From an uncultured bacterium (GTDB lineage: Bacteria > Zixibacteria > MSB-5A5 > CAIYYT01), in NCBI GenBank assembly GCA_963726455.1, contig CAVSCK010000004.1, positions 928,001 to 992,000 on the forward strand: 64,000 nucleotides of DNA, in the 5' to 3' direction. Below the pieces are notes generated by a model, which did no database searches, had not been told where the DNA came from, and saw only the letters and a program-made list of their open reading frames with translations. Made by a program: the position numbers and the translations under genes. This document shows positions 1,544-20,371 of this stretch, one piece after another. Position 1 is the stretch's first letter. Each line of letters opens with the position of its first letter.

Positions 1544-2470
1544 CTATTTCAACTCTTCCGGCTTCTTCGCCAGATTGTTGACGACGTAGTCATATACTAT
1601 GAAAGTCTCATCACCGGCAGGCGATTGGATATAGTAAGTCTTGTTGTCCGTACCCTGTCCGGCAAAACGTAATGACTTCGCGCTGCCGTCCATCATGCTC
1701 ACATCAACCTCAACCGTCGGTTGCGCAAAATTCGGCCGCACTGTATCACCTTCTGCAACCGAGTTGTTCCACCGGACCACCGCCAACTGCCGCAGCATGT
1801 TTGACATCTTTCCGGGATTTGGTTTGAACGGATCACCCTTGGCTGGAATGATGCTCCACAGCGAATCCTGTCTGCCGATGCGATAGTCGAAATCCTTGCT
1901 CTTGAAAGCAATGGTCGCGATCTGGGCAGTGTCAATAGTCAGCAGCGTCTTGTCGCGGTAACCTGATGCCGGTCGATTGAGCAACCGCGCAAAACTACCC
2001 AGCGCTTCGTACACGTCCGGCGAATCCGGTTTGCGAACATAGGTCTTCTGGTAGTCGGCGCCCATCTTGCCGATGATCACCGACGCCAGCGGAGTTTGGT
2101 CGCGATAATACGTCACAGTGTTCCCCGAAATCGTGTCAACCTGAAACAGCATTTGCTTATCAGGATTCGAGCTGATCACCTCACCGACCGACATCGTGTG
2201 CGCCAGACTTGCCAGTTGTTGTACCGTGCCCGGCTCCGTCGAGAATGACTTTCCGCGATCCAGAACGTTCCACGCCTCGCCAACTTTCTCGAATTCCACC
2301 GAACTGCCCATCCGGTGCACCGAAATCTTGTTCACCATTCCCGAATCGACACCGAGAAAATTATTCTGTGCATTTTCCGAGAGCGCTTTCTTCTGGCTTT
2401 GTGACATCAACAGGTATAGCAGAACCAGCACCGCCAGAATGATAAGCGGGATCAATCGTGATCGATTCAT
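1544..2470 (-). CDS. DUF4340-like periplasmic protein of the Gld-like ABC operon
   Basis: N-terminal anchor, IGK...YVR...VY repeats; typical position after a GldG homologue. Confidence 0.75.
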   Translation of the reverse strand: MNRSRLIPLIILAVLVLLYLLMSQSQKKALSENAQNNFLGVDSGMVNKISVHRMGSSVEFEKVGEAWNVLDRGKSFSTEPGTVQQLASLAHTMSVGEVISSNPDKQMLFQVDTISGNTVTYYRDQTPLASVIIGKMGADYQKTYVRKPDSPDVYEALGSFARLLNRPASGYRDKTLLTIDTAQIATIAFKSKDFDYRIGRQDSLWSIIPAKGDPFKPNPGKMSNMLRQLAVVRWNNSVAEGDTVRPNFAQPTVEVDVSMMDGSAKSLRFAGQGTDNKTYYIQSPAGDETFIVYDYVVNNLAKKPEELK

Positions 2471-4053
2471 ATCAACTGTCTCCTGCGATTTTGCTTGCGA
2501 ATCTGCCAGCGTGCGACACCGAACAATACCACCAGGAGGGGCATCAGGATGATGTTCATGAACTTCACGACGCCTCGCGTCGAGTCTTCGACAACTTTCA
2601 GCGGGCGGACACTGACGTCCTTCGATCTGATGGAAATCAGTCCCTCATCCTCAGAGAGCCAGTCGGTCATGTTCTGGAACATGATCAGATTCGATTGATC
2701 GCGCAGTACCTGATCCGAGACGAAATCTGCGTCACCCCAAACCACCACTCTCCCCTTGTCGCCCTGGTCCAGACGCGTGTCGAGTCCGGCGGTTCCCTGC
2801 GTAATGACCGTGTCCGGTTGCGGTTTCGGCTTGCCAGCAAAGAAGCTCTTGAAATTGCCGGTAATCGCGACTCCGAGCGGCAATCCCTGCTGATTGAAAT
2901 CGATCTTCGTCCATTGCCGGAACGGATCGATATTATAAGGAGGCACTTGGATTCCCGACTGCTTCGACGTACGCGCCAGAACTTCATAGTTCAGGCCGCT
3001 CGAACCGAAATGCGTCGTATCAATCGATGACGCATAAATCATATTCATCGACTGCAGGTCCTTGACGATCAGATTCTTCTTCGAGAAATCGGTGATCTTC
3101 GGGAAGAACGGATACTCGCGCAAACTCTGGAATCGGAATTGCCCCTGCTGCTGCTGGATTGCGATCTGCGAATTCTGAACATCGATCAGCATATTGTTGT
3201 TAACACCGACGCCGAGATTCGCAAGAAACGGATCCATTTGCGGATCGGCCGGAATCGCAGTGCCCTGCTGCACCTGCGCGTTGACCTTGTCGATCAGCAG
3301 CCCCAGTTTGCCGCCGCGCATCAGGAATTGGTCGAGCAGGTACAATTCATATTCGGAGAGCTTGGTCTTCGGACCGACGAGATACACCGTCTGGATGTCC
3401 GTCGGAATCTCATATAGCGTCCGCAGTTCCAGCGGCTCAACCTGGTACTCTTGCGACAAGACCTTGTTGATGTAGGTCAGATCCTTGTCGAGCGTCAACT
3501 CCCCGTCGCCGGTAACAAAACCGACCTTGGGAATCGAATGATGAACCAGCTTCTTGATGGCGCGCGTAATTTCGTATTCGAGGGTGGCGGTGTTTTGAAC
3601 AACGGGGATAACTTCCTTCTTATCCGCGAATAACACCGCCAGGCCCATATACACGTTCTTGATTTCCATCTTGTCGTGTGCCAGAGTCTGAATCGGCACC
3701 GCCGGTATACCATACCCGCGCGCCTCCTGCTCCTTGTTCTCTTTGACTGGATCGATGAACACGAAGTTCAGGTTCTTGCCGCCGTACGCCTCGTATTCAC
3801 CCAACTGATCCTTGAGGTAGCGCGCATTGGCGTTGTACGGCTGCGGTATGTCATCCGAGAAATAACACTTGATCGTTACGCGGTCATCCAGACTGCGCAT
3901 CAAATCCTTGGAGGATTGACTGAGCGAATAAATCTTTCCGGAGGTCATGTCGAGGCGACCGAACACATTTACGGAAAGCAGATTGAGAACCAGCAGGATC
4001 ACCAGGATGACAACTATCGAACTGATTCCGCCGATCGTGAGTTTCTTCTTCAT
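2467..4053 (-). CDS. GldG-family ABC auxiliary component
   Basis: RLDMT...YSLS..SK, LEYEITRAIKK, DQFLMRGGK, GDADF, LISIRSK; GGAGG RBS before ATG at 4053. Confidence 0.85.
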   Translation of the reverse strand: MKKKLTIGGISSIVVILVILLVLNLLSVNVFGRLDMTSGKIYSLSQSSKDLMRSLDDRVTIKCYFSDDIPQPYNANARYLKDQLGEYEAYGGKNLNFVFIDPVKENKEQEARGYGIPAVPIQTLAHDKMEIKNVYMGLAVLFADKKEVIPVVQNTATLEYEITRAIKKLVHHSIPKVGFVTGDGELTLDKDLTYINKVLSQEYQVEPLELRTLYEIPTDIQTVYLVGPKTKLSEYELYLLDQFLMRGGKLGLLIDKVNAQVQQGTAIPADPQMDPFLANLGVGVNNNMLIDVQNSQIAIQQQQGQFRFQSLREYPFFPKITDFSKKNLIVKDLQSMNMIYASSIDTTHFGSSGLNYEVLARTSKQSGIQVPPYNIDPFRQWTKIDFNQQGLPLGVAITGNFKSFFAGKPKPQPDTVITQGTAGLDTRLDQGDKGRVVVWGDADFVSDQVLRDQSNLIMFQNMTDWLSEDEGLISIRSKDVSVRPLKVVEDSTRGVVKFMNIILMPLLVVLFGVARWQIRKQNRRRQLI

Positions 4054-5910: not shown

Positions 5911-7671
5911 TCAGAGTCGCAACTGTTTTTCCGCCAACTCGCGATAGAGGCACGACTTTTCCATGAGTTCCTGATGGCTCCCCTGGTCGATAATCGCCCC
6001 ATCCTTCAGAGTTAAAATTCGGTTGGCGCGTTGGACTGTTGCCAGGCGGTGCGCAATAATAATCGCCGTCTTGTCCACCAGTATCTTGTCCAGCGATTCC
6101 TGAATCAGTTGCTCGGATATCGAGTCGAGCGCGCTGGTCGCCTCGTCCAGAATCAAAATCGGAGGGTCTTTCAGCAGCGCCCGCGCCAGGCAAATACGCT
6201 GTTTTTCGCCGCCCGACAGAGTCACGCCCCGTTCGCCCACCGTACTTTCGTACCCATCCGGCAGTCCAGCGATAAAGTCGTGAATATTGGCGTTCCGGGC
6301 CGCGCGAATGACTTCCTCACGCGCCGCGTCTGGATTCGAGTAAGCGATATTCTCGGCGATCGTCGCCCTGAACAGCAGCGGATCCTGGTCTACCAGCGCA
6401 ATGTTGTCGCGCAGCGACTGCAGTGCAAGCTTGCGCAGGTCGACGTTGTCAATGCTGACGGTGCCCTGCTCGGGATCATAAAAACGCATGATCAGATTGA
6501 TTAACGTCGTCTTGCCGGAACCCGACGGCCCGACGATAGCGATTGTCTCGCCGGCATCAATATGCAAATTGAAGTGGTCGAACTTGAAGGCGCTGTCTGG
6601 GTACGTGAAGGTCACGTCCCGCATGTCGATTTCACCGTGCACCTTCGGAATTACAACCGGCTGCGGATCTTCTTCCACCGACGGCGGCATATCCAGGTAT
6701 TCGAAGACACGATCGACCGAGGCCATGGCCGCAGATATTTCCACTTTCGCAGACCCCAGAGATTGAACCGGACCGTATAGAAATGCCAGGTACATATAGA
6801 AAGCAAACAATTGACCGAGAAGCATTGATTTTCCGGCGACGAGATAGGAACCGAAACAGAGCACGATGATCGGCCCCAGATTCGTGACAATCATTACACC
6901 GTTGTATGCGATGGATCGAATCACACTGTACTTGACATAATATCCGGTCAATCCCGTCATAATCTGGTCGACTTTCTTGCGCTCTTCCTCTTCCTTGCCA
7001 AAGGCCTTGATAACCTTAAGCCCCACCAGCGACTCCTGAATACGCGCTGAAAGTTTCGCCACCGTTTCCTGCAGGCCACGTGCGGTGCGGTGAATCTTTC
7101 CGCCGAACAAGCTTGTCACCAATAGCGTAAGCGGCACGGGAATGATGGCAAACAGCGTCATCTGCCAGTTCAGGTACAGTATGTAGGCGAGCACTCCCAC
7201 CAGGAGGAGGATATTATTGATGATCGACAGCAACGTCGCCGCCAGCAAATCCTGAATGCGGGTCACGTCAGCCATGAACCGAGACATGACCTCACCGGTT
7301 TGCCGCTTCTGGTAAAAGCGCAATGACACGGTCTCCAGGTGCTTGAACAATTTCGAGCGAACGCCCGCGATAATGTTGGCGCCGATGTACCCGGCCAGAT
7401 AATCCCGCAGCCAGGAAAACAGGAATTGCGTCACGTAGATGCTGATCAGTATCAACGCAAAGCCGAGGATCGGCATGATATCAGGCTTCTGCCCTGCAGG
7501 AACTCGCCCGATAGCGGGAATGAGATCGTCGATTAGATATTCAAACGCGCGCGGGATCGCCAACACCAGAATATTGATGACAATCATCACGGCCAGCGTG
7601 ATCAATTCCAATGTCCAGTATGGTTTGAGGAACGGCCAGAGGCGTTTAGCTTTGCCGATATCGAGGATCAT
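5911..7671 (-). CDS. ABC exporter, fused TMD+NBD (no C39 peptidase domain); RiPP cluster
   Basis: About six TM helices then GPSGSGKTT, LSGGEKQR, LDEATSALD, IAHRL; start 7671 or 7704. Confidence 0.9.
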   Translation of the reverse strand: MILDIGKAKRLWPFLKPYWTLELITLAVMIVINILVLAIPRAFEYLIDDLIPAIGRVPAGQKPDIMPILGFALILISIYVTQFLFSWLRDYLAGYIGANIIAGVRSKLFKHLETVSLRFYQKRQTGEVMSRFMADVTRIQDLLAATLLSIINNILLLVGVLAYILYLNWQMTLFAIIPVPLTLLVTSLFGGKIHRTARGLQETVAKLSARIQESLVGLKVIKAFGKEEEERKKVDQIMTGLTGYYVKYSVIRSIAYNGVMIVTNLGPIIVLCFGSYLVAGKSMLLGQLFAFYMYLAFLYGPVQSLGSAKVEISAAMASVDRVFEYLDMPPSVEEDPQPVVIPKVHGEIDMRDVTFTYPDSAFKFDHFNLHIDAGETIAIVGPSGSGKTTLINLIMRFYDPEQGTVSIDNVDLRKLALQSLRDNIALVDQDPLLFRATIAENIAYSNPDAAREEVIRAARNANIHDFIAGLPDGYESTVGERGVTLSGGEKQRICLARALLKDPPILILDEATSALDSISEQLIQESLDKILVDKTAIIIAHRLATVQRANRILTLKDGAIIDQGSHQELMEKSCLYRELAEKQLRL

Positions 7672-9076
7672 TCTGCCAGTCCGGAAAATACTTATTGGCG
7701 GCAAATCGGAGCGCGCCTGGGGATAGCGTGTTTCTCATCGCTTGATCCCGCTGGGTCAACATCTCAAACCAAAGATCGGGATCGTTGGCAAGATCGTGCG
7801 ACGGAATATTGCGCCGGCAGTTTGTGTATTGATCTTCCTCCAGTTTCCACCAGTCGGGGCAGAGAATCTTGCTGCCGAATTGTTGCTCGAACCAGGCACT
7901 GTTGTAGTCCATCTCGCAGCCGGGGTAGTGCATATAGCCGAGACCGGCCCACATGAAAGTCGTTTCTTTGCGCTGCAATTCGGCGTCCATGAAGGCAAAT
8001 GTCTCATCAAGCGTTCGATGTGTCTCGCCGGGGTAATTAAAGATCATGTTTGCGCGGTGCAACACTCCGGCATCGGACAGCCGATGGCTGACCGTCTTGA
8101 CAATTTCGAGGTACTTTTCCGGCTGCTTAGTCTTCTTCATATAGCGTAGAATGTCGGGAGATCCGCTTTCAACACCCAATTCGATTTCCACCTTGAGTTT
8201 TGAGAACAGTGCAATATCCTCGGGATCAATATACTCCGGGCGAGTCTCGACAACAATCCAAAACTCCGGCTGCAGGTCGACGAGTCGGCGCAGGAATTCC
8301 TTGCGCCAGGCCGGACGCATCCCGAAACAGGCGTCACTTATTGCCACCGAGTAGAAATTGAATCGTTTGTAGGCGTCCAGAATATGCTTAATGGAATCCT
8401 CGGGACTATAGGCGCGCCATCGCCGATCTTTCAATCCCTCCATGCAGAATGCACAGTTAAACGGGCAGCCGCGCGACAGATACATATAGAAACTCTGCAC
8501 ACCTTCGGGTTTGTGTTCTGCCAGATGCTGTTCGAGCAGGTCGAGATTGAGCGGTACGAAGTGTTCGACGCCAAACATCGGCGCGTGCACAATCTTCGTT
8601 TCACTAGGACGGCCGTCGCGTTTGAGGTTGCCGGCAATTTCGCGGAGAATCAATTCGCCTTCGCCGCAAATCACGTAATCGAACAGCCGTTCTTCAGTCA
8701 GGAATTCATTGGGACGTGCCGAGGGATGATAGCCGCCGACTACAATCAGCTTATTGGGATACATTTCCCGGAAGATACGGGCGGTCTTCATGGTCGCCAG
8801 ATAAGATAAGCTGGTCCAGCAGGAAATGGCGAGAATGTCGCAGTCTTGTTTGGCGAAGAAGTCGCGGACTTTGCGTTCGTAGCGCTTGATCAAAGTCGGA
8901 CTGTTGGGCCGGCCGATCGAGTGCTCGAAATCGGCATAAGTAACAGGAAAGTATTGAGCCAGGTATGACGACAGCGTCAACTGTGACGCGCGAACATCGG
9001 GCTTGGCGATCCAATCAGGGTAATAGAAGCAGGATGGGTAAAGCACCAAAACCGACGGTGAAGTTGCAGCGGCCAA
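7646..9076 (-). CDS. Cobalamin-binding radical SAM protein (class B methyltransferase-like)
   Basis: N-terminal B12-binding fold (AISCWTS, VVGGYHPS, GEGE), SRGCPFNCAFC, LGVESGS, PGET. Confidence 0.88.
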   Translation of the reverse strand: MAAATSPSVLVLYPSCFYYPDWIAKPDVRASQLTLSSYLAQYFPVTYADFEHSIGRPNSPTLIKRYERKVRDFFAKQDCDILAISCWTSLSYLATMKTARIFREMYPNKLIVVGGYHPSARPNEFLTEERLFDYVICGEGELILREIAGNLKRDGRPSETKIVHAPMFGVEHFVPLNLDLLEQHLAEHKPEGVQSFYMYLSRGCPFNCAFCMEGLKDRRWRAYSPEDSIKHILDAYKRFNFYSVAISDACFGMRPAWRKEFLRRLVDLQPEFWIVVETRPEYIDPEDIALFSKLKVEIELGVESGSPDILRYMKKTKQPEKYLEIVKTVSHRLSDAGVLHRANMIFNYPGETHRTLDETFAFMDAELQRKETTFMWAGLGYMHYPGCEMDYNSAWFEQQFGSKILCPDWWKLEEDQYTNCRRNIPSHDLANDPDLWFEMLTQRDQAMRNTLSPGALRFAANKYFPDWQNDPRYRQS

Positions 9077-9081
9077 TCTAA

Positions 9082-10194
9082 CTAATGGCCTTCCGTTTGT
9101 GGCGGTTGGAACCTGGCCAGAAGTTGCGTGACAATCTCACTGTCCGGTGGCGCCGCGATGCCTTGTGCCTGCTCAATGCGGTACGTACAATACGGATTGT
9201 CCGCGCGGCAACCCGAGGCAGACACCGATGTTGTCGTGCAACCACCCCGGCACAGCGGCAGGTACTTGCAGTCGTGGCATGCGCCCGATGCAGTCTCGCG
9301 CGTAAACTTGCGGTTATATGCAAAGGCGTCCGGGTTATTCCAGATCTCCTTCAATGATTTCTCGCGAATGTTGCCTTCGACGAACTCCTCCTGCATGGAC
9401 AAGCATCCCTTGACGTTGCCGTTGGACTCAATCCCCACAACTCGCGTGCCGGCATAGCAACCCATATACACACCACCCTCCCAGAGTTTGGTCCCGAGTT
9501 GTCCGAAGTAGCCGATGTTTTCGCCGACGTCGAGATGCAGGCCGTTCTTACGTTCCTTGATTTCGATCAGCTTACTGATCATTTTCGGATAATCGGCAAG
9601 ACGCAGCACGAGTTCGTTGCTGTCTTTCATACGTCCGGTTGACGTGCAAAGCTGCACCCGCCATTCGGGACAACCGATGTCCACCAGAATATTATAGATG
9701 TCGTCAAGTTCTCCAAGGTTGATGTTAGACACTTGCGTCACGGCACAGAAATTGTGCCCCTTGCGCTTCGACAATTGCTTCAATGCACTCACGGCGCCCT
9801 TGAAACTGTCCTCGCGCTGTCGAATGTAATTGTGCGTCTTCTCGGTACCGTCGAAGCTGACTCCCACATTGGTCATCGGGACACTTGCCATATCGTTGGC
9901 TACCGCTTCTGTCAACAACAACCCGTTCGTTACCAATAGCGGCTTCATCTTACGCTCTTTGATCCGCTTGGCGAAAACCAGCCAATCCTCTCGCATCAGT
10001 GGTTCACCACCGGAGAGAGCGATATTGTCGGTGCCCATCTCTGCGAGTTCATCGATCAATTTTAGCCCCTCGTCGGTGGTCAGTTCGTCCGCTCTTCTCT
10101 TGCCGGCAGCCGTGCCGCAGTGAAGGCAGCGCATGTTGCAGGCGAAAGTTATTTCCCAGACGACTGCGTGGGGATAGAATTTGAACTCGGTCAT
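9082..10194 (-). CDS. Radical SAM/SPASM peptide maturase, PlpX-like splicease family
   Basis: VWEITFACNMRCLHCGTAAGKRRADEL, NIGYFG, GCYAG..VVGIESNGNVKGCLSM, CHDC...CRGGCT...NPYC.YR. Confidence 0.8.
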   Translation of the reverse strand: MTEFKFYPHAVVWEITFACNMRCLHCGTAAGKRRADELTTDEGLKLIDELAEMGTDNIALSGGEPLMREDWLVFAKRIKERKMKPLLVTNGLLLTEAVANDMASVPMTNVGVSFDGTEKTHNYIRQREDSFKGAVSALKQLSKRKGHNFCAVTQVSNINLGELDDIYNILVDIGCPEWRVQLCTSTGRMKDSNELVLRLADYPKMISKLIEIKERKNGLHLDVGENIGYFGQLGTKLWEGGVYMGCYAGTRVVGIESNGNVKGCLSMQEEFVEGNIREKSLKEIWNNPDAFAYNRKFTRETASGACHDCKYLPLCRGGCTTTSVSASGCRADNPYCTYRIEQAQGIAAPPDSEIVTQLLARFQPPQTEGH

Positions 10195-11541
10195 GTCTTC
10201 TCCTTGGCTTTAGAAGTGGCTTGCTGCTGACGAGATCGCGCAATGATGTCAAGCATGGGTGTGAGATTATGCTTCCAACTCTGGCAGATTTCAGTGCCCT
10301 GCAATCCCCGGTCGACGCGCTGAGCCGGACAGCCACCCATGCAGAGCGGCAAGATGTCGCAACTCCTGCACTCGCTCGTCCTCGAACGGATCGAAACTGA
10401 ATAATCTGGTGAAATTGGGATGCTGAAAATCAATGTAGTTACGAATATTGCCCATCGATCTTTCCGGATCTCCGACATAATTCCAACAGCGGCAGATATT
10501 CCCCTCCGGATCGACGATAAAGCCGTTAATATGCTGGGCCATGCAATATATCGCGCTCGGACTCGGCAATTTCTGGACCGCAAATCCTTCGTCCAGCAAC
10601 TGGCGATAGAAACCGATTTCCACCTCGGAGAATTGCACGGTATCAAAGCATGTGTCAGCTATCGCGGCGCACGTCATTGATGACGGTTCAAGCTGGCCGA
10701 AGTAGACCGCTATTCGCTGCTGCAGTCCGGCCGCCTTAAGTTGCCCCAGCAATTCGGACATGGCCGCGAGGTCAACCGTCTTGTCAACGTTGACGCGGAC
10801 CGATATCATCATCTTGCTCGAAGCATATTTGACATTATCCAAAATCGTCTGGAACGAATCTTTGCCGTTCTTCAACGGCCGCCGCTGATTGTGCAGGCGC
10901 TCGGGACCATCGAGCGTGACCTGGCAAATCGAGACGTGCAGTTCCGCCAGTTTGTCCACCACATCCTTGGTCATTAGATATCCGTTGGTGACAATCGAAG
11001 ACGTGTAGGCGAACTGCTTCTCGCGCCCGAGATCGATCAGACTCTCCGCCAGATCCTCTATGATGTCCATCGCCAGTAGCGGTTCACCACCGTACCAATC
11101 CACATCAACCTTGTCGAGTGACTTTGCCTGCTTGTCGACGAAGCCGATGATGCCTTCCACGATCTCCGGGCTCATCTTGCCCTTCTTGTTGCCTTCGAAG
11201 CAATACGGGCAGGCCATATTGCAGGCCATTGTCGGGGCAATCACCAGTCCCAGCGTCCGTCGGTCGTAGCGCGTGCTTTGATGCAGAAATTTCAGCCATT
11301 GGACTTCATTCTCCGAATCAGGAAGCATGAACTTCCCAAATTCAAGCTGCTTCTGCAGTTCGGTCTCCGCGGCATTGAGTGTCGAAGTATCACCACCATT
11401 AGTGCTGCTGCTCGCCAGCCGCAGATACGTCTGGTAGTTTGCCTCTGTCATGAGAGCTAACGCGCCCGTGCGCGCATTAAACGCGATGTAGTACCCCTGT
11501 TGCCAGGGTCGAAAGAGGTTATAGAGGGAGACTTTACTCAT
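10191..11541 (-). CDS. Radical SAM/SPASM peptide maturase with N-terminal RRE-like domain; +1 frameshift near 10375
   Basis: CNMACPYC, WYGGEPLL, QVTLDG; the SPASM tail CRSCDILPLCMGGCP...C lies in the neighbouring frame, which ends at 10191 overlapping the next ATG. Confidence 0.85.
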
Positions 11542-11835
11542 ACGGCGACACGCTTCTTCATTACATGTGATGCGTTACGAATCGTGACCGACTAATCAGT
11601 AGAACCTCATGCTAGTTCGAAGCGCCGAATTCTGATCGATTGCCTGATAGCCCAGTGAAAGCATCAAATAAATACTCGTTAGAGCGACTTTTGTCAAGTC
11701 GTATTTGAGCTCTGAGCGATGACCGAGTTTCGTTTTGCTCGGATGCATAATACTTTGAACAACAATCTTTGTGCGGCAACCGGCAGGCGTCAGAAGAGGC
11801 GTGTCCACGAGTGAAAGTGATCGTCTTGGCGGGTA

Positions 11836-11864
11836 AGAAAGAGGGAGGGGACTAAGCCCCTCCC
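11836..11864 (-). terminator. Stem-loop between precursor and maturase genes
   Basis: GGGAGGGG/CCCCTCCC stem just after the precursor stop, followed by TCTTTCTT on the minus strand. Confidence 0.7.
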
Positions 11865-11867
11865 GAT

Positions 11868-11987
11868 TCATGTCCGACTCAGATAGGACTCGGGCTTAAT
11901 TCCGTAGCACGGATATACGACACCCTTGCACTTGAAGAACGTGCAAGCGTCGATGCCCGGGTTTTGTGGATCAATCAAATAGATCAT
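11868..11987 (-). CDS. RiPP precursor peptide MIYLIDPQNPGIDACTFFKCKGVVYPCYGIKPESYLSRT (39 aa)
   Basis: Translated by hand; AGGAGG RBS 5 nt before ATG; 3 Cys and a CYG motif; co-oriented upstream of three rSAM genes; hairpin after stop. Confidence 0.85.
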   Translation of the reverse strand: MIYLIDPQNPGIDACTFFKCKGVVYPCYGIKPESYLSRT

Positions 11988-12903
11988 TAAAACCTCCTGG
12001 GGTTAAGTGAAGGGTCACTGAAGGGCCGAAGCCCTTCCGTATCAATGAAACTACCTTTTGATACGTCTATAACACTTACGCTCTGCCCGTTTCACGGGCA
12101 GGTACAGGATAGTTCCTCCGAGTGGCAGGCGGGTCAAACACCTGCTTTGGTTCACTAAACGTCTGGGAAGCGCGTCGATTTCATGCCGAAGACGACTCAG
12201 TACCGCTTACAAAGTATGATAAATTAAGGACTTCAACAATTGCTCGCCGCTATGATAGCATCTTTTGAATGTCAAAGTCAAGAGTTTTTGGAATGAAACA
12301 TTACCAAAAGTAACCGGATAATCGTTAAGACACACCAAACTTGCAGTCTGAACATTTGTCCGGCTTGATGGGAACGGCGAACAAGCAGTCGCGGCGCGGA
12401 GAACGTATCCTTCGCGCCGCGCAGAACACTTTGGAAATCTAGGCCGGGTCCACTCCGTACATCGGATAGAACCTGGGACTGCACAGTTTCTTGAGCGTGC
12501 AACCGCTGATCGATGTGTCCTGGGGATCGATCAAATAAATCATCGGGATTCCTCCTATGATGAATTTGGAGTTTTGCTGACGTGGGCCTGCGGCCCACCC
12601 CGTATCATGAACCTCTGATACGTTTCTTGCTTATGCGACCTCGTTCGTTTGCCACCTGTCGAAAACTAGGACATCCAGTCTTTCGATGCAATAGCCAATT
12701 CTCGACAATCCATCCTGGCTAGTGAGACGGCCTACTACACCTGCTGAAACAAGCAATGTCCGCTCCGGTGCGAAACTATAGAGGTAACAATTCGATCAGT
12801 TGAAAGAATATTACGATTTGCCCGCCCATTTGTCAATGAAAATGAATCTTGGTAAGACGATGAACTGAACGTCGACCGCTAGCGTGTCGGGCATGTTGCG
12901 CAG

Positions 12904-15549
12904 CTAAAGCACTGGATGCTCTTGATCTGCCCGTTGGCCCGCATTCCTGAGCAACTCAGTATTGATTGCCTCCGCTAATTCGCGGCGGGAATATGGCTTT
13001 CTGACAAACGCCGTGACTCCCAGAGTCTGCAATTTACTGACTCTGTCGGTCGTCGCATATCCACTGACGAGAATTGCCCTTTGCTGTGGATGTATCTTGA
13101 GGATTGCCTCGTAAGTGTCTAGTCCGTCAAAATCCTTTTCCAGAATCATGTCCAGTAAGACAAGGTCCACCGACCGGCCAGAGAGATAAACAACGGCCTC
13201 GTGGCCGTTAGTAACCAGTTCCACCTCGTAACCAAGACTTCCGAGGATTTGTCTTGCTATCTCCCTCTGTTCCGAGTCATCCTCCACCACCAGAATCTTC
13301 ACCGGTGTTGGCCCCGGCTCATAGTTCTTCTGTTCAGCAGGGCACGATGTCATAATCGGTGCCGATGTCGCCGGGAAGAACAGTAAGAACTCTGCGCCCC
13401 TACCCGGCTCCGAAAGGACGTCATAGTACCCTTTGTGATCCTTCACTATGCCATGAACAACTGCCAGACCCAGTCCGCTGCCGCTGGCGCCCATCGGCTT
13501 GCTTGAATAATAGGGATGAAAGATCTTATACACGTCCTCTGGATTTATCCCGACGCCCGAATCCTTCACGCTCACGACTACATATTCACCCGGTTCGATT
13601 CCGTTGAATCCACTGGGAAGTTGGGTATACTGGCCGGAGTACGTTCTTATCGTCAATTCGCCCCGGTCGCCGATAGCTTCGAATGCATTCACCACCAGAT
13701 TCATGATGGCTTTCATCAGATGCGATGCCGAACCACTGATATTCGGCAAGGTGTCCGGTAGCGCAACATTCACGGAAATGTTAGGGTGATTTTCCCTCAG
13801 CGAGAGGAAATTCGGTGACTCCAGATATTGTCTAAGCACTTCGTTGACATCAGTCGGCTTGGTTTCGTATCGACCCCGTCGCGCCAGCGCCAGCAGATCC
13901 TGAATAACATCAGCGGCGTCTCTCGCCGCCTTCGACATGATTTCCAGTTGGCGCCGATGCGGACTATCCGACGGCAGTTTCATCATTATCAACTCAGGGT
14001 AAGCCACCAGTGGCCCCAGAATATTGTTCAGGTCGTGCGCTACCCCGCCGGCCAGCAACGCCAATGATTCTGCACGCTCCGCTTTCTCCAACCGGCGCTG
14101 CAAGATTTCCTGCTGCTCGGCTTCGTGCAGCCGCAATGTGATATCGCGCGCGACACCGACGATGCCGGCAACCTTCCCGCGCTCGTAGTACGGCTGTTCG
14201 TTGACTTCCAGTACCAGCCGATGCTTCTGCTTGTGGTATATCTCCACCTGATACGGCGGGAATGTGATTCCCTCTTCCATCGCCCGTTCCGTAAAGTCGA
14301 TCACCTTGGCATTGGCAGGACTGTCGGTCAGGTAGCTGGTATAGTGCCGCATCCACTCCTGCGGCGTATATCCGGTCACGGCCTCCACCGAATGCGAGAC
14401 GTAGTGGAAGATTCCCTGAGTATCGTGGCGATATATGAAGTCGCTCGTATTCTCCAGCAGCACCCGTTGCTCGGCAGCCAGTTCTGACACCTTTGTCGCC
14501 GCATCTTTCAATGCTTCTTCCGTGTGCTTGCGCTCGACTATCTCATCTACCAGACTGCTGTTCTGATGGAAGAATTGGTCAATGAGATAGGCAATCAGCC
14601 CGAACTCTCCCCCCTCCATTTTTAGATTCTGAATATACTTTGCGTCGTCTTCCGACAGTGCGCGCGATATAGAAGCAAGCGGCCGCGATACCCAGAATCG
14701 CAGCGTATACCAGCCCACCAGGATCAGCAAACTGCAAAAGACGATAATCACCGCCGTGCGGGTATTAACTGCGCGATTGTATTCAGCCAGGAATCCCGAT
14801 CGACTTTCACTTCTGACGACCGTCACGGGAAAACTATTCCAACCGTACAGCGTATCCGCCGTGCGCACTTGTGCTTCATGCAGGTCAGACATCCATTGCG
14901 TAAGAGGCGAGTTCCCGATCTCCACCAGCGTGATGTTGGCCTCCGACAGCCGTTCCAATTCCCTCACATAATCTGATGACCACAAGCGCCCAACCAGCAA
15001 ATAGCCCACTGGCGGGGTGCTCCGTCCCTCATCCGCACTCGGTTGAATCGGTGCGCCACACATTTCCATGGGTCCGAGCGGCGTCGACACGAAGAAATGA
15101 GGAAACATGCCGTTGGCGAACAGGTGTTCACTGTTAGCGGTGAGAAATGGCTCCATTGCCACAACTTCGCCCGCGACCTTGCACACTGCGTAGACCTGCG
15201 CCATATCGGTTCGGAATACCCAGGCAGCAGTGGCATCATACGTTTCAATGCCCACATCTATGTTTTCGTGCGCCCAGCCGCTATCCGACGTCTTCACGAA
15301 AGTAACCATGTCGTCCCAGAAACTATAGTCGTAGGCAAGTGTCACAAGCGATGTGCCGTTTAGTTCGATGATCTTGTGTAGTAGCTTCTGTTCGCTGGTT
15401 TCCTGGTCAACCAGAATTGATTTTGCGCGGTCTGTTTCAGAATGATGCAGTACGATCATACCGCAAAGCAGTATCCCGACCAGTACGATCAGCAGGAATA
15501 ACAGACGTGTCTGCACTGTGGCCACGATAGTCCCCTGTTGCCTTCGCAT
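12904..15549 (-). CDS. Hybrid sensor histidine kinase (CHASE4-like sensor, PAS, HisKA, HATPase, receiver)
   Basis: DYSFWDDM sensor motif, GGVAHDLNN, NLVVNA, D.G.GI, GSGLGL, receiver ILVVEDD...LLDMIL...KP. Confidence 0.92.
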   Translation of the reverse strand: MRRQQGTIVATVQTRLLFLLIVLVGILLCGMIVLHHSETDRAKSILVDQETSEQKLLHKIIELNGTSLVTLAYDYSFWDDMVTFVKTSDSGWAHENIDVGIETYDATAAWVFRTDMAQVYAVCKVAGEVVAMEPFLTANSEHLFANGMFPHFFVSTPLGPMEMCGAPIQPSADEGRSTPPVGYLLVGRLWSSDYVRELERLSEANITLVEIGNSPLTQWMSDLHEAQVRTADTLYGWNSFPVTVVRSESRSGFLAEYNRAVNTRTAVIIVFCSLLILVGWYTLRFWVSRPLASISRALSEDDAKYIQNLKMEGGEFGLIAYLIDQFFHQNSSLVDEIVERKHTEEALKDAATKVSELAAEQRVLLENTSDFIYRHDTQGIFHYVSHSVEAVTGYTPQEWMRHYTSYLTDSPANAKVIDFTERAMEEGITFPPYQVEIYHKQKHRLVLEVNEQPYYERGKVAGIVGVARDITLRLHEAEQQEILQRRLEKAERAESLALLAGGVAHDLNNILGPLVAYPELIMMKLPSDSPHRRQLEIMSKAARDAADVIQDLLALARRGRYETKPTDVNEVLRQYLESPNFLSLRENHPNISVNVALPDTLPNISGSASHLMKAIMNLVVNAFEAIGDRGELTIRTYSGQYTQLPSGFNGIEPGEYVVVSVKDSGVGINPEDVYKIFHPYYSSKPMGASGSGLGLAVVHGIVKDHKGYYDVLSEPGRGAEFLLFFPATSAPIMTSCPAEQKNYEPGPTPVKILVVEDDSEQREIARQILGSLGYEVELVTNGHEAVVYLSGRSVDLVLLDMILEKDFDGLDTYEAILKIHPQQRAILVSGYATTDRVSKLQTLGVTAFVRKPYSRRELAEAINTELLRNAGQRADQEHPVL

Positions 15550-17074: not shown

Positions 17075-20000
17075 ATGAACCAATGTAGAATTCAGCGTTG
17101 CCTCGTGATTCTGATTCTCGCCGTGCTCGCGATCTTTGTGTCGTTTGCGTACGCGGAGAAGAAGATTCCCAGCCCGATTGTAACTAACGGATCGGCTCCC
17201 GCCAATCCCAATTGGGACCTGAAAGCCCAGCAACAAGGCGATCAGTCGCATGATCCTGCCATCCAGAAAGACGAATGGGACGTTCCCAATCCGAACGATG
17301 CCGCAATTGCCCAGTCACCGGAAGGCGGTCTCGCTGTCGGCGATGATTGCTCCAATCCCATTTCGATTTCACTGCCGGCCCAACTGCCATACAGCGATCT
17401 GAGCCAGACAACTTGTGGCCGGCTGAACAACTATGACGCCACCTGTCTCGGAAACTATGACGGCGGCGAGGACATCATTTACAAAGTCGATGTCACTACC
17501 TCCACTATGATCAACATTACGCTCAACCCCAAGGGAACTACCTATACCGGTTTCCTGGTGGATGATGCCTGTCCGCCTGATCCTTCGACGTGTATCGCCA
17601 AGAGCACCAACTCCTCTTCGACGGCACACACCATAAAGAATCTCACGCTGGCCCCAGGCACCTATTACATCATGGTCGACACCTGGCCATCACCCGCCTG
17701 TATCCCCAGCTTCGATCTTTCAATAATTGCGTCTCCGCCACCGCCGGTTAATGACAACTGCGCCAGTGCCACGCCGATCGGCGACGTTTCCGGCCTGGCA
17801 TTTTCTACGCTGTACGCCAGTATCGATGGCCCCGGCGGCTTCATCTATTCGCCTAACATCTGGTATTGCTACACCGCTTCTTTGACCGGCGTGGCCACCG
17901 CCACCCTTTGCGGCTCGATGTTTGATACCAAGATTCGCGTGTGGAACGGTTGCACTTGCCCGCCCACTTCCCTACTGGCTCAAAACGACGACGGCTGTTC
18001 CGGTTATCCCACCGGCAACACTTATGCCTCAAAGTTGTCGTTCGACGTAATTGCCGGCCAAACATACCTCATCGAGGTAGGCGGCTACAGTCCCTCGCAA
18101 ATGGGCGACGGCACGATGACCATTACTTCCATCGTCCCCCCAATCGGTGATGCCTGCGCCGTGCCAATCGTTGTTGGTATGTCGCCATCCGCTTTGCCGT
18201 TTACCATCGCTAACCAGTACACTTGCGGCAGAAGCGACAACTACAACTCTACCTGTCTGGGCAGCTACGACGGCGGTGAGGATATCATCTACCGCATAGA
18301 CGTCACTCAGCCCACCTATGTCGATGTCACACTGAATCCGAAAGGAACAAGCTATACCGGATTTCTTATCGATGACGCCTGTCCGCCTGATCCAACGACC
18401 TGCTTATATGTCAAGACCAACAGCGGCAGTGCCGCCTATGGCCTGACGAATGTCTTTCTCGCCGTCGGATCGTACTACCTTATGGTCGATACCTATCCGA
18501 GCCCGGCTTGCGTTCCGGACTTCGACCTCACTTTCTCAGTACCGGTTGGCGCTCCGATGAACGATAACTGCGCTACCGCTACCGCAATCGGTAATGTCAC
18601 GGACCTGGCCTTCTCGACCGCGTCCGCCACATTCGACGGCCCCGGCGGCTATATCGTATCGCCGAACGTCTGGTACTTGTACACAGCTCCCTGCACCGGC
18701 TCGGTCGACATAAGTCTCTGTAATTCCAATTTCGATACCAAAATGCGTGTGTGGAATGGAAGTACTTGCCCGCCCACGACGGTCGCGGCTCAGGACGATG
18801 ACGGCTGCAATACTCCCAACGGCCTTGCATCGATGGTGAGTTTCGCCACGGTTGCAGGCAGCCAGTACCTGATCGAAATCGGCGGTTACGGCCAAGCCAC
18901 CGGCAATGGCTTCCTGACTACCAATTGCACGCCGGCGCCGCCAAACGATAATTGCCAGGACGTCGTTCCGGTTGACCTGTTTGCGGGTTCGCCGCTTACC
19001 TTCACCGGCGACAATCGTGGCTCCACGAATGACTGTTCGTTGCTTCTGCGCGCACAGGCCTGGCATGCCTTTACGATTACCGAGTGCATGAACGTCACCA
19101 TTGACTTCTGTTCGACAACTCCTGCCTTCGGTAGCGTGTACGTCGTCGTTATGCAGGGTTGCCCGTGCGGCAGCTACACATACGGTTCCTACGACTGGGC
19201 TGCCTGCGGCGATGGCAACGTCACCATGACGTATAGCGCCCTGATGCCGGGAACTTATTACATTCCTGTCCTGCTCGATCCGGCTTTAAACGCCGCAGGG
19301 CCGTACACGATTCACGTCAATGCTTCATCCGTGGCGTCCATGTGTTCTGCCGGCGCCACCACTTGCGATGAATACATCAGCAACGTCCAGGTCGGCACAA
19401 TCGACAACAGTTCATCCTGCGGCACGGGCGGATACACCGATTACACTTCCATCTCTACCGAGATGATCAAGGGTGTCGGCTATCCGATAACCGTAACCAA
19501 CGGCCTGCCGTACTCTCAGGATGCTTGTGGCATCTGGGTCGATTGGAATGGTGATTTCTGCATCGACGCCGGTGAGCAAGTAGCGGTCTCCGGCAACCCG
19601 GGTGGCGGCCCCTATACAGCAGTGATCAATCCTCCCTGCAATATTGCGACCGGCCCGAAATTGCTGCGCATTCGTATTCTCTACTACTCTGTACCGACCC
19701 CTTGCGGCCTGAGCGAGTATGGAGAAGTCGAAGACTACACTATTAATCTTGTTGATCCGCCAGCCGTTCCTCCGACTGCGGTCGCCATCCCTGATCCGCA
19801 GTTTGTGTATTACGAATATGCGGTCGATCCGGTCACGGACTCCTTCTACATCGGTAATTTTGCCGGTGGACACACTTTCGCGGATATCAATCTCGAGAGC
19901 GTTAAAGTCAACGGCCTGACTCCGGCCAACGTAACCGTACTTCCGAGTTATCCCGGATTCTACTGCCCCGTTGTTTGCGCCACGATGCCCTGTGCTGCCT

Positions 20001-20371
20001 TCCTGGCGCCGCTGGGCGTCCTGTACGATACGACGTCTCACACCTACCACGTATCCTGGGCATACAACGATGCAACTCGGGATTCAATTGCCGGAACTGT
20101 GACCCTGATTGGCCATACTTCCGCCTCGCCAGGTCAGTTTATTGCGCCTGCCGGAATCGTAGTCGTCCCTGGTGACTTCGATTTGTCGGGCCAGATTGAT
20201 ATCAGTGACCCAGTCGCGATGATCGGATACATTTTCAACAGCCAACCGGGACCGCAGAATCTCAGCATTGGTGATGTCAACTGCTCAGGTGGTTTCGACA
20301 TTTCCGACGTTGTCTACATGATTCAGTATATTTTCTCGGGTGGTTCCACCCTTTGTAACGCCGGGAAGTAG
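17075..20371 (+). CDS. Large secreted Cys-rich protein with repeated beta-sandwich domains, GEVED domain and dockerin-like tail
   Basis: Signal peptide; duplicated (TCGR..NY..TCLG.YDGGEDIIY)+(NDNCA.AT.IG...FDTK.RVW) modules; YGEVEDY; GDFDLSGQIDISD...GDVNCSGGFDISDVVYMIQYIF. Confidence 0.85.
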   Translation: MNQCRIQRCLVILILAVLAIFVSFAYAEKKIPSPIVTNGSAPANPNWDLKAQQQGDQSHDPAIQKDEWDVPNPNDAAIAQSPEGGLAVGDDCSNPISISLPAQLPYSDLSQTTCGRLNNYDATCLGNYDGGEDIIYKVDVTTSTMINITLNPKGTTYTGFLVDDACPPDPSTCIAKSTNSSSTAHTIKNLTLAPGTYYIMVDTWPSPACIPSFDLSIIASPPPPVNDNCASATPIGDVSGLAFSTLYASIDGPGGFIYSPNIWYCYTASLTGVATATLCGSMFDTKIRVWNGCTCPPTSLLAQNDDGCSGYPTGNTYASKLSFDVIAGQTYLIEVGGYSPSQMGDGTMTITSIVPPIGDACAVPIVVGMSPSALPFTIANQYTCGRSDNYNSTCLGSYDGGEDIIYRIDVTQPTYVDVTLNPKGTSYTGFLIDDACPPDPTTCLYVKTNSGSAAYGLTNVFLAVGSYYLMVDTYPSPACVPDFDLTFSVPVGAPMNDNCATATAIGNVTDLAFSTASATFDGPGGYIVSPNVWYLYTAPCTGSVDISLCNSNFDTKMRVWNGSTCPPTTVAAQDDDGCNTPNGLASMVSFATVAGSQYLIEIGGYGQATGNGFLTTNCTPAPPNDNCQDVVPVDLFAGSPLTFTGDNRGSTNDCSLLLRAQAWHAFTITECMNVTIDFCSTTPAFGSVYVVVMQGCPCGSYTYGSYDWAACGDGNVTMTYSALMPGTYYIPVLLDPALNAAGPYTIHVNASSVASMCSAGATTCDEYISNVQVGTIDNSSSCGTGGYTDYTSISTEMIKGVGYPITVTNGLPYSQDACGIWVDWNGDFCIDAGEQVAVSGNPGGGPYTAVINPPCNIATGPKLLRIRILYYSVPTPCGLSEYGEVEDYTINLVDPPAVPPTAVAIPDPQFVYYEYAVDPVTDSFYIGNFAGGHTFADINLESVKVNGLTPANVTVLPSYPGFYCPVVCATMPCAAFLAPLGVLYDTTSHTYHVSWAYNDATRDSIAGTVTLIGHTSASPGQFIAPAGIVVVPGDFDLSGQIDISDPVAMIGYIFNSQPGPQNLSIGDVNCSGGFDISDVVYMIQYIFSGGSTLCNAGK

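Follow-up and report, generated by a model that had tools for sequence, protein, structure and literature searches.

Tyramine spliceases are radical S-adenosylmethionine (rSAM) enzymes with a SPASM domain, of which PlpX and PcpX represent type I and RhaX, RasX and RcsX represent type II. Known spliceases act at an XYG site, natively MYG or LYG, and the type II enzymes are independent of a Y protein, their leader peptide being predicted to occupy the Y-protein site (PMC11414181, PMC11626197, PMC9811515). [quoted passage not shown] Here we analyzed a stretch of 64 000 nt from an uncultured bacterium of the Zixibacteria (assembly GCA_963726455.1, contig CAVSCK010000004.1, positions 928 001–992 000), hereafter the window. 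It contains a cluster of two small precursor genes, three rSAM genes (rSAM1 to rSAM3) and an ATP-binding cassette (ABC) exporter gene. We consider that this is probably a RiPP cluster that converts Cys-rich peptides into cross-linked products with a protease-blocking ketoamide, a chemistry that we infer from the encoded proteins and their relatives.

In the proposed pathway, the two precursor genes, both of which have a promoter-like site, would supply peptides with a short MIYLIDP leader. The CteB-like rSAM1 would bind this leader and form thioethers between cysteines and backbone or side-chain carbons. rSAM2, a PlpX-related SPASM enzyme with neither an RRE nor a Y partner, would use its C-terminal domain to bind that leader directly and would act at P-x-Y-G to generate a ketoamide, which is a known protease-inhibiting warhead. 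rSAM3, encoded in about half of the clusters, would introduce one more change, for which C-methylation is the simplest candidate, and the ABC transporter would export the product. A more far-reaching proposal, in which our confidence falls just short of even, is that the cluster represents an undescribed, phylum-wide RiPP subclass in which one MIYLIDP leader is read by two rSAM enzymes and the product is a stapled, exported keto-β-amino-acid protease inhibitor. In such a subclass, the thioether synthase would read the leader through its RRE, and the Y-independent splicease through a groove at its SPASM end; the warhead would be a C-terminal α-keto-β-amino acid, with the β-residue derived from Cys in some members, and a B12-dependent modification would be optional.

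The locus resembles the spliceotide systems in that rSAM2, as an rSAM-SPASM enzyme, falls into the same broad clade, the substrate site is x-Y-G with X being mostly Leu or Met, and the core is short and contains Cys, as in RasA and RcsA. As in the type II systems, a separate Y protein is lacking, and the window leader was modelled directly on the enzyme. Unlike in the spliceotide systems, however, rSAM2 scores 242 bits against TIGR04103, compared with a cut-off of 725 bits; the leader comprises approximately 7 conserved residues (MIYLIDP) and is neither of the Nif11/NHLP type nor long and helical; the single predicted splice site is preceded by an invariant Pro; the family is always accompanied by a CteB-like RRE-rSAM enzyme and 2–5 Cys, and often by a B12-binding rSAM enzyme; and the host belongs to a different, uncultured phylum.

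rSAM1 shares the RRE-rSAM-SPASM build of CteB, PapB, CrpC and the Clo7bot maturase, with CteB providing the best fold match, and the regular spacing of the substrate Cys and the presence of an ABC exporter in the cluster are also features of sacti- and ranthipeptide systems. In contrast to the maturases of those systems, rSAM1 reaches none of the family cut-offs; among intact relatives, the highest score is 338 compared with 600. The window system further differs in that its substrate also carries a predicted splice site, that second and third rSAM enzymes are present and that the window rSAM1 is frameshifted. rSAM3 resembles the class B radical SAM methyltransferases (TokK, TIGR03975) in having an N-terminal B12-binding domain and a radical SAM core and in being encoded within a RiPP cluster, but it gives weak matches only and is absent from 8 of 18 loci with near-identical precursors. 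By analogy, the system would work like a type II spliceotide pathway combined with a sacti/ranthipeptide-type pathway and an optional class B rSAM step.

The original prediction, made from the window sequence, proposed a single 39-residue precursor. This open reading frame (ORF), here named A2 (positions 11868–11987, minus strand, from the ATG at 11987 to the TGA at 11868; MIYLIDPQNPGIDACTFFKCKGVVYPCYGIKPESYLSRT), was present with exactly the translation given, and its ribosome-binding site, described as strong, was found as AGGAGG 5 nt ahead of the ATG. It is not the only precursor: a paralogue in the same genome, A1 (12439–12543, minus strand, 34 residues; MIYLIDPQDTSISGCTLKKLCSPRFYPMYGVDPA), lies 450 nt upstream of A2, beyond the span considered in the prediction, with GGAGG 7 nt ahead of its ATG, and is a member of the family alignment. 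MIYLIDPQ and Y-P-x-Y-G are common to both peptides, and the first eight codons of the two genes show four synonymous third-position differences and no amino acid change. Each peptide contains 2–3 Cys (up to 5 in family members of other genomes), and in A2 the X of P-x-Y-G is itself Cys (P26-C27-Y28-G29).

A tblastn search with the peptide gave matches in 17 of the 20 genomes of the same family-level group, and a peptide profile run against 285 genomes of the phylum found members in 86 (E ≤ 0.001), a single genome having as many as 8 copies. Because the first eight codons of the paralogues differ only synonymously and the profile matches so many genomes, A2 is more than a chance ORF, and the 39-residue peptide is a member of a real, conserved precursor family. 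In an alignment of 23 sequences, M1, I2, L4, D6, P7, C15, C20, P26, Y28 and G29 were invariant. Scans of the precursors against NCBIfam and Pfam returned no match at E ≤ 0.01; the huazacin sactipeptide family gave weak matches in 5 of the 23 precursors at E ≤ 10, the best of which (E = 0.033) was not significant.

A degenerate DNA pattern of the peptide motif, run against a single genome for each prokaryote species, gave 34 loci, many of which come from the same genomes as the relatives' loci used for the synteny comparison below. Nearly all titled records among these loci were labeled Zixibacteria or Zixiibacteriota, with some other labels. Enzyme genes lay within 6 kb of the precursor in 29 of the 34 loci, and the other 5 were orphan precursors. 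Across all loci collected, orphan family precursors with no maturase within approximately 6 kb were seen at L038, L041, L052, L060, L062 and L067, and some genomes therefore encode extra substrates away from the cluster. The record of L041 bears the title Alphaproteobacteria.

From every locus collected, we compiled 82 unique leader-bearing small ORFs, 80 of which contained exactly one YG. Among these 80 peptides, Pro occupied position –2 of YG in 79; X of x-Y-G was Leu (60 peptides), Met (11) or Cys (9); YG was directly followed by Val or Ile in 76; and 79 had 2–5 Cys, with a Cys-Cys spacing of 4 residues in 113 of 166 gaps (mostly i/i+4). These YG statistics are partly circular, as 34 loci were fetched by the P-x-Y-G pattern and others by peptide similarity. 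Because the pattern demanded P-x-Y-G, only the remaining loci test that feature, and among them the 15 cluster loci recovered by rSAM2 homology (see below) are the only ones free of this selection bias. In the family peptides, the single P-x-Y-G lies a few residues from the C-terminus.

The cluster order is precursor(s), rSAM1, rSAM2, an optional B12-binding rSAM and the ABC exporter, and all of the cluster genes in the window are on the minus strand. This order, with one to three precursors, was found in 18 of 19 relatives' loci, and the nineteenth was an orphan precursor. The cluster is thus widely conserved across this uncultured phylum and is not a one-off. A conserved small ORF was anticipated beside homologous rSAM genes, and tblastn and profile searches bore this out, the same enzymes adjoining the precursor family in relatives. 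The original prediction also described four tightly coupled genes downstream of the precursor. Their order and coupling were confirmed, since the genes from rSAM2 to the ABC exporter adjoin or overlap one another and the rSAM1 stop codon overlaps the rSAM2 start codon (ATGA), but rSAM1 could not be upheld as one intact ORF. Similarly, a trio of rSAM genes is present in the window, including the B12-binding enzyme, but the latter is accessory and not a constant member: its gene lies between rSAM2 and the ABC gene in 10 of the 18 relatives' loci and is absent from 8. Two genomes of the same genus lack the gene, although the window has it. rSAM3 is accordingly dispensable for the cluster family.

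The window rSAM1 gene (10191–11541, minus strand) is split between two frames: one frame spans 10291–11541 and encodes 416 residues, and the C-terminal SPASM part continues in another frame to 10191. A DNA alignment with three relatives placed one extra base near 10374, and the NCBIfam match to the window gene covers profile positions 1–377 in one frame and 389–432 in another. A single rSAM1 ORF of 448–454 residues was found in all 17 relatives examined, a set that excludes L027. The shift occurs just ahead of the CX2CX5CX3C part of the SPASM domain, and the 416-residue product would therefore lose five conserved SPASM cysteines. The thioether step would then be disabled in this genome if the assembly is right.

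A reading in which the frameshift is real and the cluster in this genome was recently inactivated, or is partly inactive, yielding no product or a spliced peptide without cross-links, is a serious contender, although on balance we lean against it. The extra base relative to three relatives and the intact gene in all 17 relatives speak for a genuine change, the site is not a homopolymer, and each of the other four genes aligns in one piece with a same-genus locus, which means that the region is not riddled with errors. On the other hand, the shifted frame is fully open, is 70% identical to the same-genus orthologue and retains the ATGA overlap with rSAM2; the change must therefore be either very recent or an assembly error. 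The record of L066 contains a B12 enzyme that matches as two overlapping pieces (approximately 1820–3233), resembling a single-base frameshift, so that single-base errors do occur in assemblies of this group. Elsewhere in the genome of the window, two intact rSAM1-like genes (G000:C1:35471-36790 and G000:C3:649146-650402), which are 33% and 30% identical to the rSAM1 orthologue, probably belong to other peptide-modification clusters.

Returning to the proposed splicing and cross-linking pathway, its splicing step would depend on rSAM2 (9082–10194, minus strand), a probable tyramine splicease acting at P-x-Y-G. NCBIfam and Pfam (Radical_SAM and SPASM) matches describe an rSAM-SPASM enzyme with no N-terminal RRE; CX3CX2C is at residues 19–26, a SPASM domain follows, and there is no N-terminal extension. 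rSAM2 scored 248 bits against TIGR03913 (cut-off 592) and 242.3 bits against TIGR04103 (cut-off 725), and because it is far below both cut-offs, it is a member of neither family. We take IPR026482, the PlpX entry, to be equivalent to TIGR04103. The tyramine splicease with which the class was founded, PlpX, is assigned to IPR026482 (PMC11002830). The description of rSAM2 as a PlpX-type relative nevertheless held, in that its nearest family is of the PlpX type and some of its homologues adjoin xYG peptides, as set out next.

A published survey, as summarized in PMC10849128, recognized spliceases by YG-rich peptides next to PlpX-like enzymes. Since rSAM2 is outside the curated families, we applied this neighbor criterion to its homologues. 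A metagenome scan with an alignment of rSAM2 homologues from outside the Zixibacteria-type cluster gave 80 loci, of which 15 were clusters of the Zixibacteria type and 65 were single or tandem rSAM2-like genes (32–48% identity) without rSAM1. Five of these 65 distant loci (L105, L107, L129, L136 and L137), all of low G+C content, had an adjoining same-strand, precursor-like ORF with xYG. The xYG sites were repeated in L107, L129, L136 and L137 and single in L105; a GG-type leader end was found in four of the five, and no Cys followed the GG leader-cleavage site in any. The core of L107 consists of three PLYG units, i.e. the same P-L-Y-G-[IV] unit as in the window family. Small ORFs with at least two YG accounted for 7 of 235 ORFs adjoining rSAM2-like genes, compared with 3 of 2083 elsewhere in the same loci, an enrichment (odds ratio 21) computed from loci that are not all independent. 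Three rSAM2-like loci of high G+C content (L121 35-262, L123 and L138) have adjoining ORFs that possibly represent other substrate types: one is a Cys-rich ORF of 75 residues with two YG, and two end in AYGTGGGGGG-type tails.

In a FastTree phylogeny of 176 sequences, the Zixibacteria-type rSAM2 enzymes formed one clade (support 99) with YG-associated enzymes on both sides, and TIGR04103- and TIGR03913-like sequences formed a neighboring clade. We also modelled the complex of rSAM2 with the 39-residue precursor, with S-adenosylmethionine and three clusters as ligands. The score was 0.67, compared with 0.01 for the best of 3 controls, this score being the model's own confidence, obtained with our own alignments and with ligands that are outside the tool's calibration; the mark used for it is reached by 116 of 157 solved complexes and by 2 of 215 mismatched pairs. 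Contact agreement between runs was at least 76%, and the predicted local distance difference test (pLDDT) value of the partner was at least 54. In the model, leader residues 1–7 lie on rSAM2 residues 244–254, 295–299, 312–316 and 354–362, which belong to the SPASM/C-terminal region, and precursor residues 23–34, including P26-C27-Y28-G29, lie on barrel strands beside the GGE motif. No additional conserved small gene that could encode a Y partner was found in the cluster among the relatives compared. As modelled, with the leader on the enzyme and no Y partner, rSAM2 fits only the type II splicease arrangement, and from its nearest families, the peptides beside some distant homologues and the complex model it is most likely a tyramine splicease.

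It is also conceivable, albeit unlikely in our judgment, that rSAM2 is not a splicease and that the Tyr of P-x-Y-G undergoes another radical reaction, i.e. a C–C or C–S cross-link to a neighbor (cyclophane-type or Cys-Tyr) or an oxidation, giving a doubly cross-linked product with no ketoamide. Consistent with this, rSAM2 does not reach the cut-off of the PlpX family and lies as near to TIGR03913 as to that family, it scores 162 bits against MftC, which acts on Tyr, and substantially against other SPASM families, and the Val or Ile found after YG in 76 of the 80 peptides would suit a three-residue cyclophane motif. However, cyclophane-forming families were not among the 25 best NCBIfam matches of rSAM2, and its distant homologues adjoin tandem xYG repeats, as splicease substrates have. 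The invariant Tyr and Gly, together with an X that is mostly Leu or Met, moreover correspond to the natural splice site (PMC10533398, PMC11626197).

Splicing by rSAM2 would be accompanied by thioether formation, for which rSAM1 is the candidate enzyme. The window rSAM1 scored 299.2 bits against TIGR04334 and 261.3 bits against TIGR04463, followed by 116.1 and 79.4 bits, all of which are below the NCBIfam cut-offs (600 for TIGR04334, 525 for TIGR04463, 340 for PapB and 425 for SCIFF). Its nearest families, i.e. the Clo7bot maturase family (TIGR04334), TIGR04463, CefB, FlmE/OhkG, geopeptide and PapB, as well as SCIFF, are all partnered with Cys-rich peptides. We modelled the intact same-genus orthologue with AlphaFold (mean pLDDT 78). 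The model contains an N-terminal strand-and-helix domain before residue 95, and its best fold match was the thioether synthase CteB (5wgg), aligned over the full length (473 columns), followed by anSME, TigE and SuiB. Pfam PqqD/RRE gave no match in the N-terminal 100 residues of rSAM1 or of two orthologues, and the RRE is assigned because of the fold of the orthologue model. Intact orthologues have the RRE-rSAM-SPASM build with conserved Cys motifs (CX3CX2C and SPASM). The predicted build was thus upheld, with CteB as the best fold match and nearest families that act on Cys-rich peptides, and the sequence and the model indicate that rSAM1 is probably a thioether-forming maturase.

The distribution of Cys among the substrates agrees with such a division of labor. 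The xYG precursors have Cys in the modified part where an rSAM1-type gene is present and lack it in the five loci with rSAM2 alone; this split association of YG with rSAM2 and of Cys with rSAM1 is a direct observation, as are the gene content, the conservation and the domain builds. Furthermore, a single-chain protein of 938 residues (P0074) fuses an rSAM2-like half with a Clo7bot-like half according to NCBIfam, and another of 833 residues (P0145) fuses an rSAM2-like half with a second radical SAM stretch, as judged by Pfam domains only; these fusions tie the rSAM1-type and rSAM2-type activities together. The suggestion that the cysteines instead form disulfides or bind metal, with rSAM1 carrying out another leader-dependent change (epimerization or C–C cross-linking), can draw on the disulfide between two Cys of the Rheinheimera spliceotides (PMC11626197) and on the failure of rSAM1 to pass any curated family cut-off, but it is quite improbable given that the best families of rSAM1 all have Cys-rich substrates, that thioether synthesis is proven both for one of these families and for the best fold match (PMC13692751), and that Cys in the xYG precursors tracks the rSAM1-type gene, with none after GG at the five loci that have rSAM2 alone.

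The remaining two proteins of the proposed pathway are rSAM3 and the exporter. rSAM3 (7646–9076, minus strand) has B12-binding (PF02310, residues 69–147) and Radical_SAM (PF04055, residues 199–362) domains in Pfam, as had been predicted. Its nearest solved structure is that of the methyltransferase TokK (58 bits), and its best NCBIfam match is TIGR04013 (85.6 bits, cut-off 251). As a guess by family, rSAM3 possibly performs C-methylation in an accessory tailoring role; judged by eye, the precursors of clusters with and without the B12 gene are nearly identical. The placement of the three rSAM enzymes in TIGRFAM families, proposed as a check, therefore had a mixed outcome, as nearest families were identified but all three enzymes are below every cut-off. 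The ABC exporter (5911–7704, minus strand) is a fused permease and ATPase of the MsbA-like type (Pfam ABC_membrane 38–313 and ABC_tran 376–524); it is present as the final gene, as predicted, and is also the last cluster gene in relatives. In NCBIfam it is MsbA-related, below the cut-off, and Pfam detected no C39 or other peptidase domain in it.

Several observations weigh against the pathway as proposed. Besides the frameshift in the window rSAM1, the intact same-genus orthologue also passes no curated cut-off (337.8 bits at best compared with 600, then 293.4 and 147.0), and the cysteines could form disulfides, as they do in RasA and RcsA (PMC11626197). For rSAM2, the distance from both PlpX-type families extends to its relatives: among its 150 best representatives, drawn from a library of 1.8 billion proteins, none passes TIGR04103 (best score 550.6) and one passes TIGR03913. 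Clear xYG precursors were found at just 5 of the 65 distant homologue loci and at none of most high-GC loci, and the deep branches of the rSAM2 tree are weakly supported. To these are added the partial circularity of the YG counts and the self-assessed nature of the complex score, both noted above. Cys, the X of 9 of the 80 peptides including A2, is not a natural X of the characterized spliceases in the papers cited. rSAM3 falls in no known methyltransferase family of NCBIfam (61.3 bits against TIGR03975, cut-off 281.85). Finally, the cluster contains no leader peptidase, and no protease is conserved there.

With respect to novelty, the cluster would combine known kinds of chemistry, namely splicing and thioether stapling, and we found no description of it in the literature searched, the main splicease survey (Scott et al., Chem 2022) being outside that search. 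The string 'MIYLIDP' was absent from the searchable literature, and, with the same survey again outside the search, none of the papers listed links Zixibacteria to RiPPs or radical SAM enzymes. To our knowledge, the Zixibacteria are a phylum without a cultured member, and this pathway, if the proposal is true, would be among the few natural-product pathways assigned to it. Ketoamide formation by backbone splicing is known, as is thioether stapling by radical chemistry; here they would be combined on a peptide of approximately 35 residues with a 7-residue leader. Such a peptide would serve as a compact scaffold in the search for protease inhibitors, provide protein engineering with a minimal splice tag and be a test case for two radical SAM enzymes sharing one leader. 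The split association predicts that YG peptides will accompany rSAM2-type enzymes alone, and that Cys-plus-YG peptides will accompany both enzymes.

Regulatory elements were sought around the precursor genes. A consensus scan found a σ70-like site approximately 260 nt upstream of each precursor, i.e. TTGACA-17-TAATAT upstream of A1 (12808–12836, minus strand) and TTGACT-18-TATCAT with a TG upstream of A2 (12252–12281, minus strand); both match at 10 of 12 positions and are pattern matches only. Just ahead of each ribosome-binding site, the 5'-untranslated region contains a two-hairpin element (12581–12623 for A1 and 12019–12066 for A2, both on the minus strand). In the A1 element, a GC hairpin follows a GTATC..GATAC inverted repeat, and the A2 element aligns with it and with the elements of relatives. 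The two-hairpin element recurs across genera, including at L033, L040, L022, L024 and L025, and could serve either as an RNA element or as the operator of a dimeric regulator; an Rfam scan of 11400–13000 gave no match at E ≤ 1.

The hairpin predicted after the A2 stop codon was also found. It has a GC-rich stem and a T-rich tail (11843–11864, minus strand) and resembles a terminator, with TCTTTCTT following; a hairpin occupies the same position in three relatives (L033, L040 and L022). It probably limits or attenuates read-through into the enzyme genes and lies within the noncoding gap of 326 nt between A2 and rSAM1. An ORF of 91 residues in this gap (11596–11871), the ATG of which overlaps the A2 TGA, was rejected as a gene because it has no family match and the spacer is noncoding in three relatives.

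The flanks are foreign to the cluster, with a hybrid kinase upstream and an ABC-2 type transporter set downstream. The kinase (12904–15549, minus strand; CHASE4-PAS-HisKA-HATPase-REC) is directly upstream of the cluster and also adjoins it in two same-genus loci, whereas two other families have weak counterparts only. The kinase is a candidate regulator of the cluster. Among the metagenome contigs, L106 and L108 represent a divergent branch of the cluster, with identities of 39–44% for rSAM1, 54–58% for rSAM2 and 42% for the B12 enzyme and a precursor of the MEYLIDP type; L106 has an extra ORF of 354 residues between the precursor and rSAM1. Farther along the window (17075–20371, plus strand), a gene unrelated to the cluster encodes a secreted-looking protein of 1098 residues with PPC and GEVED domains, internally repeated halves and a C-terminal end resembling a dockerin.

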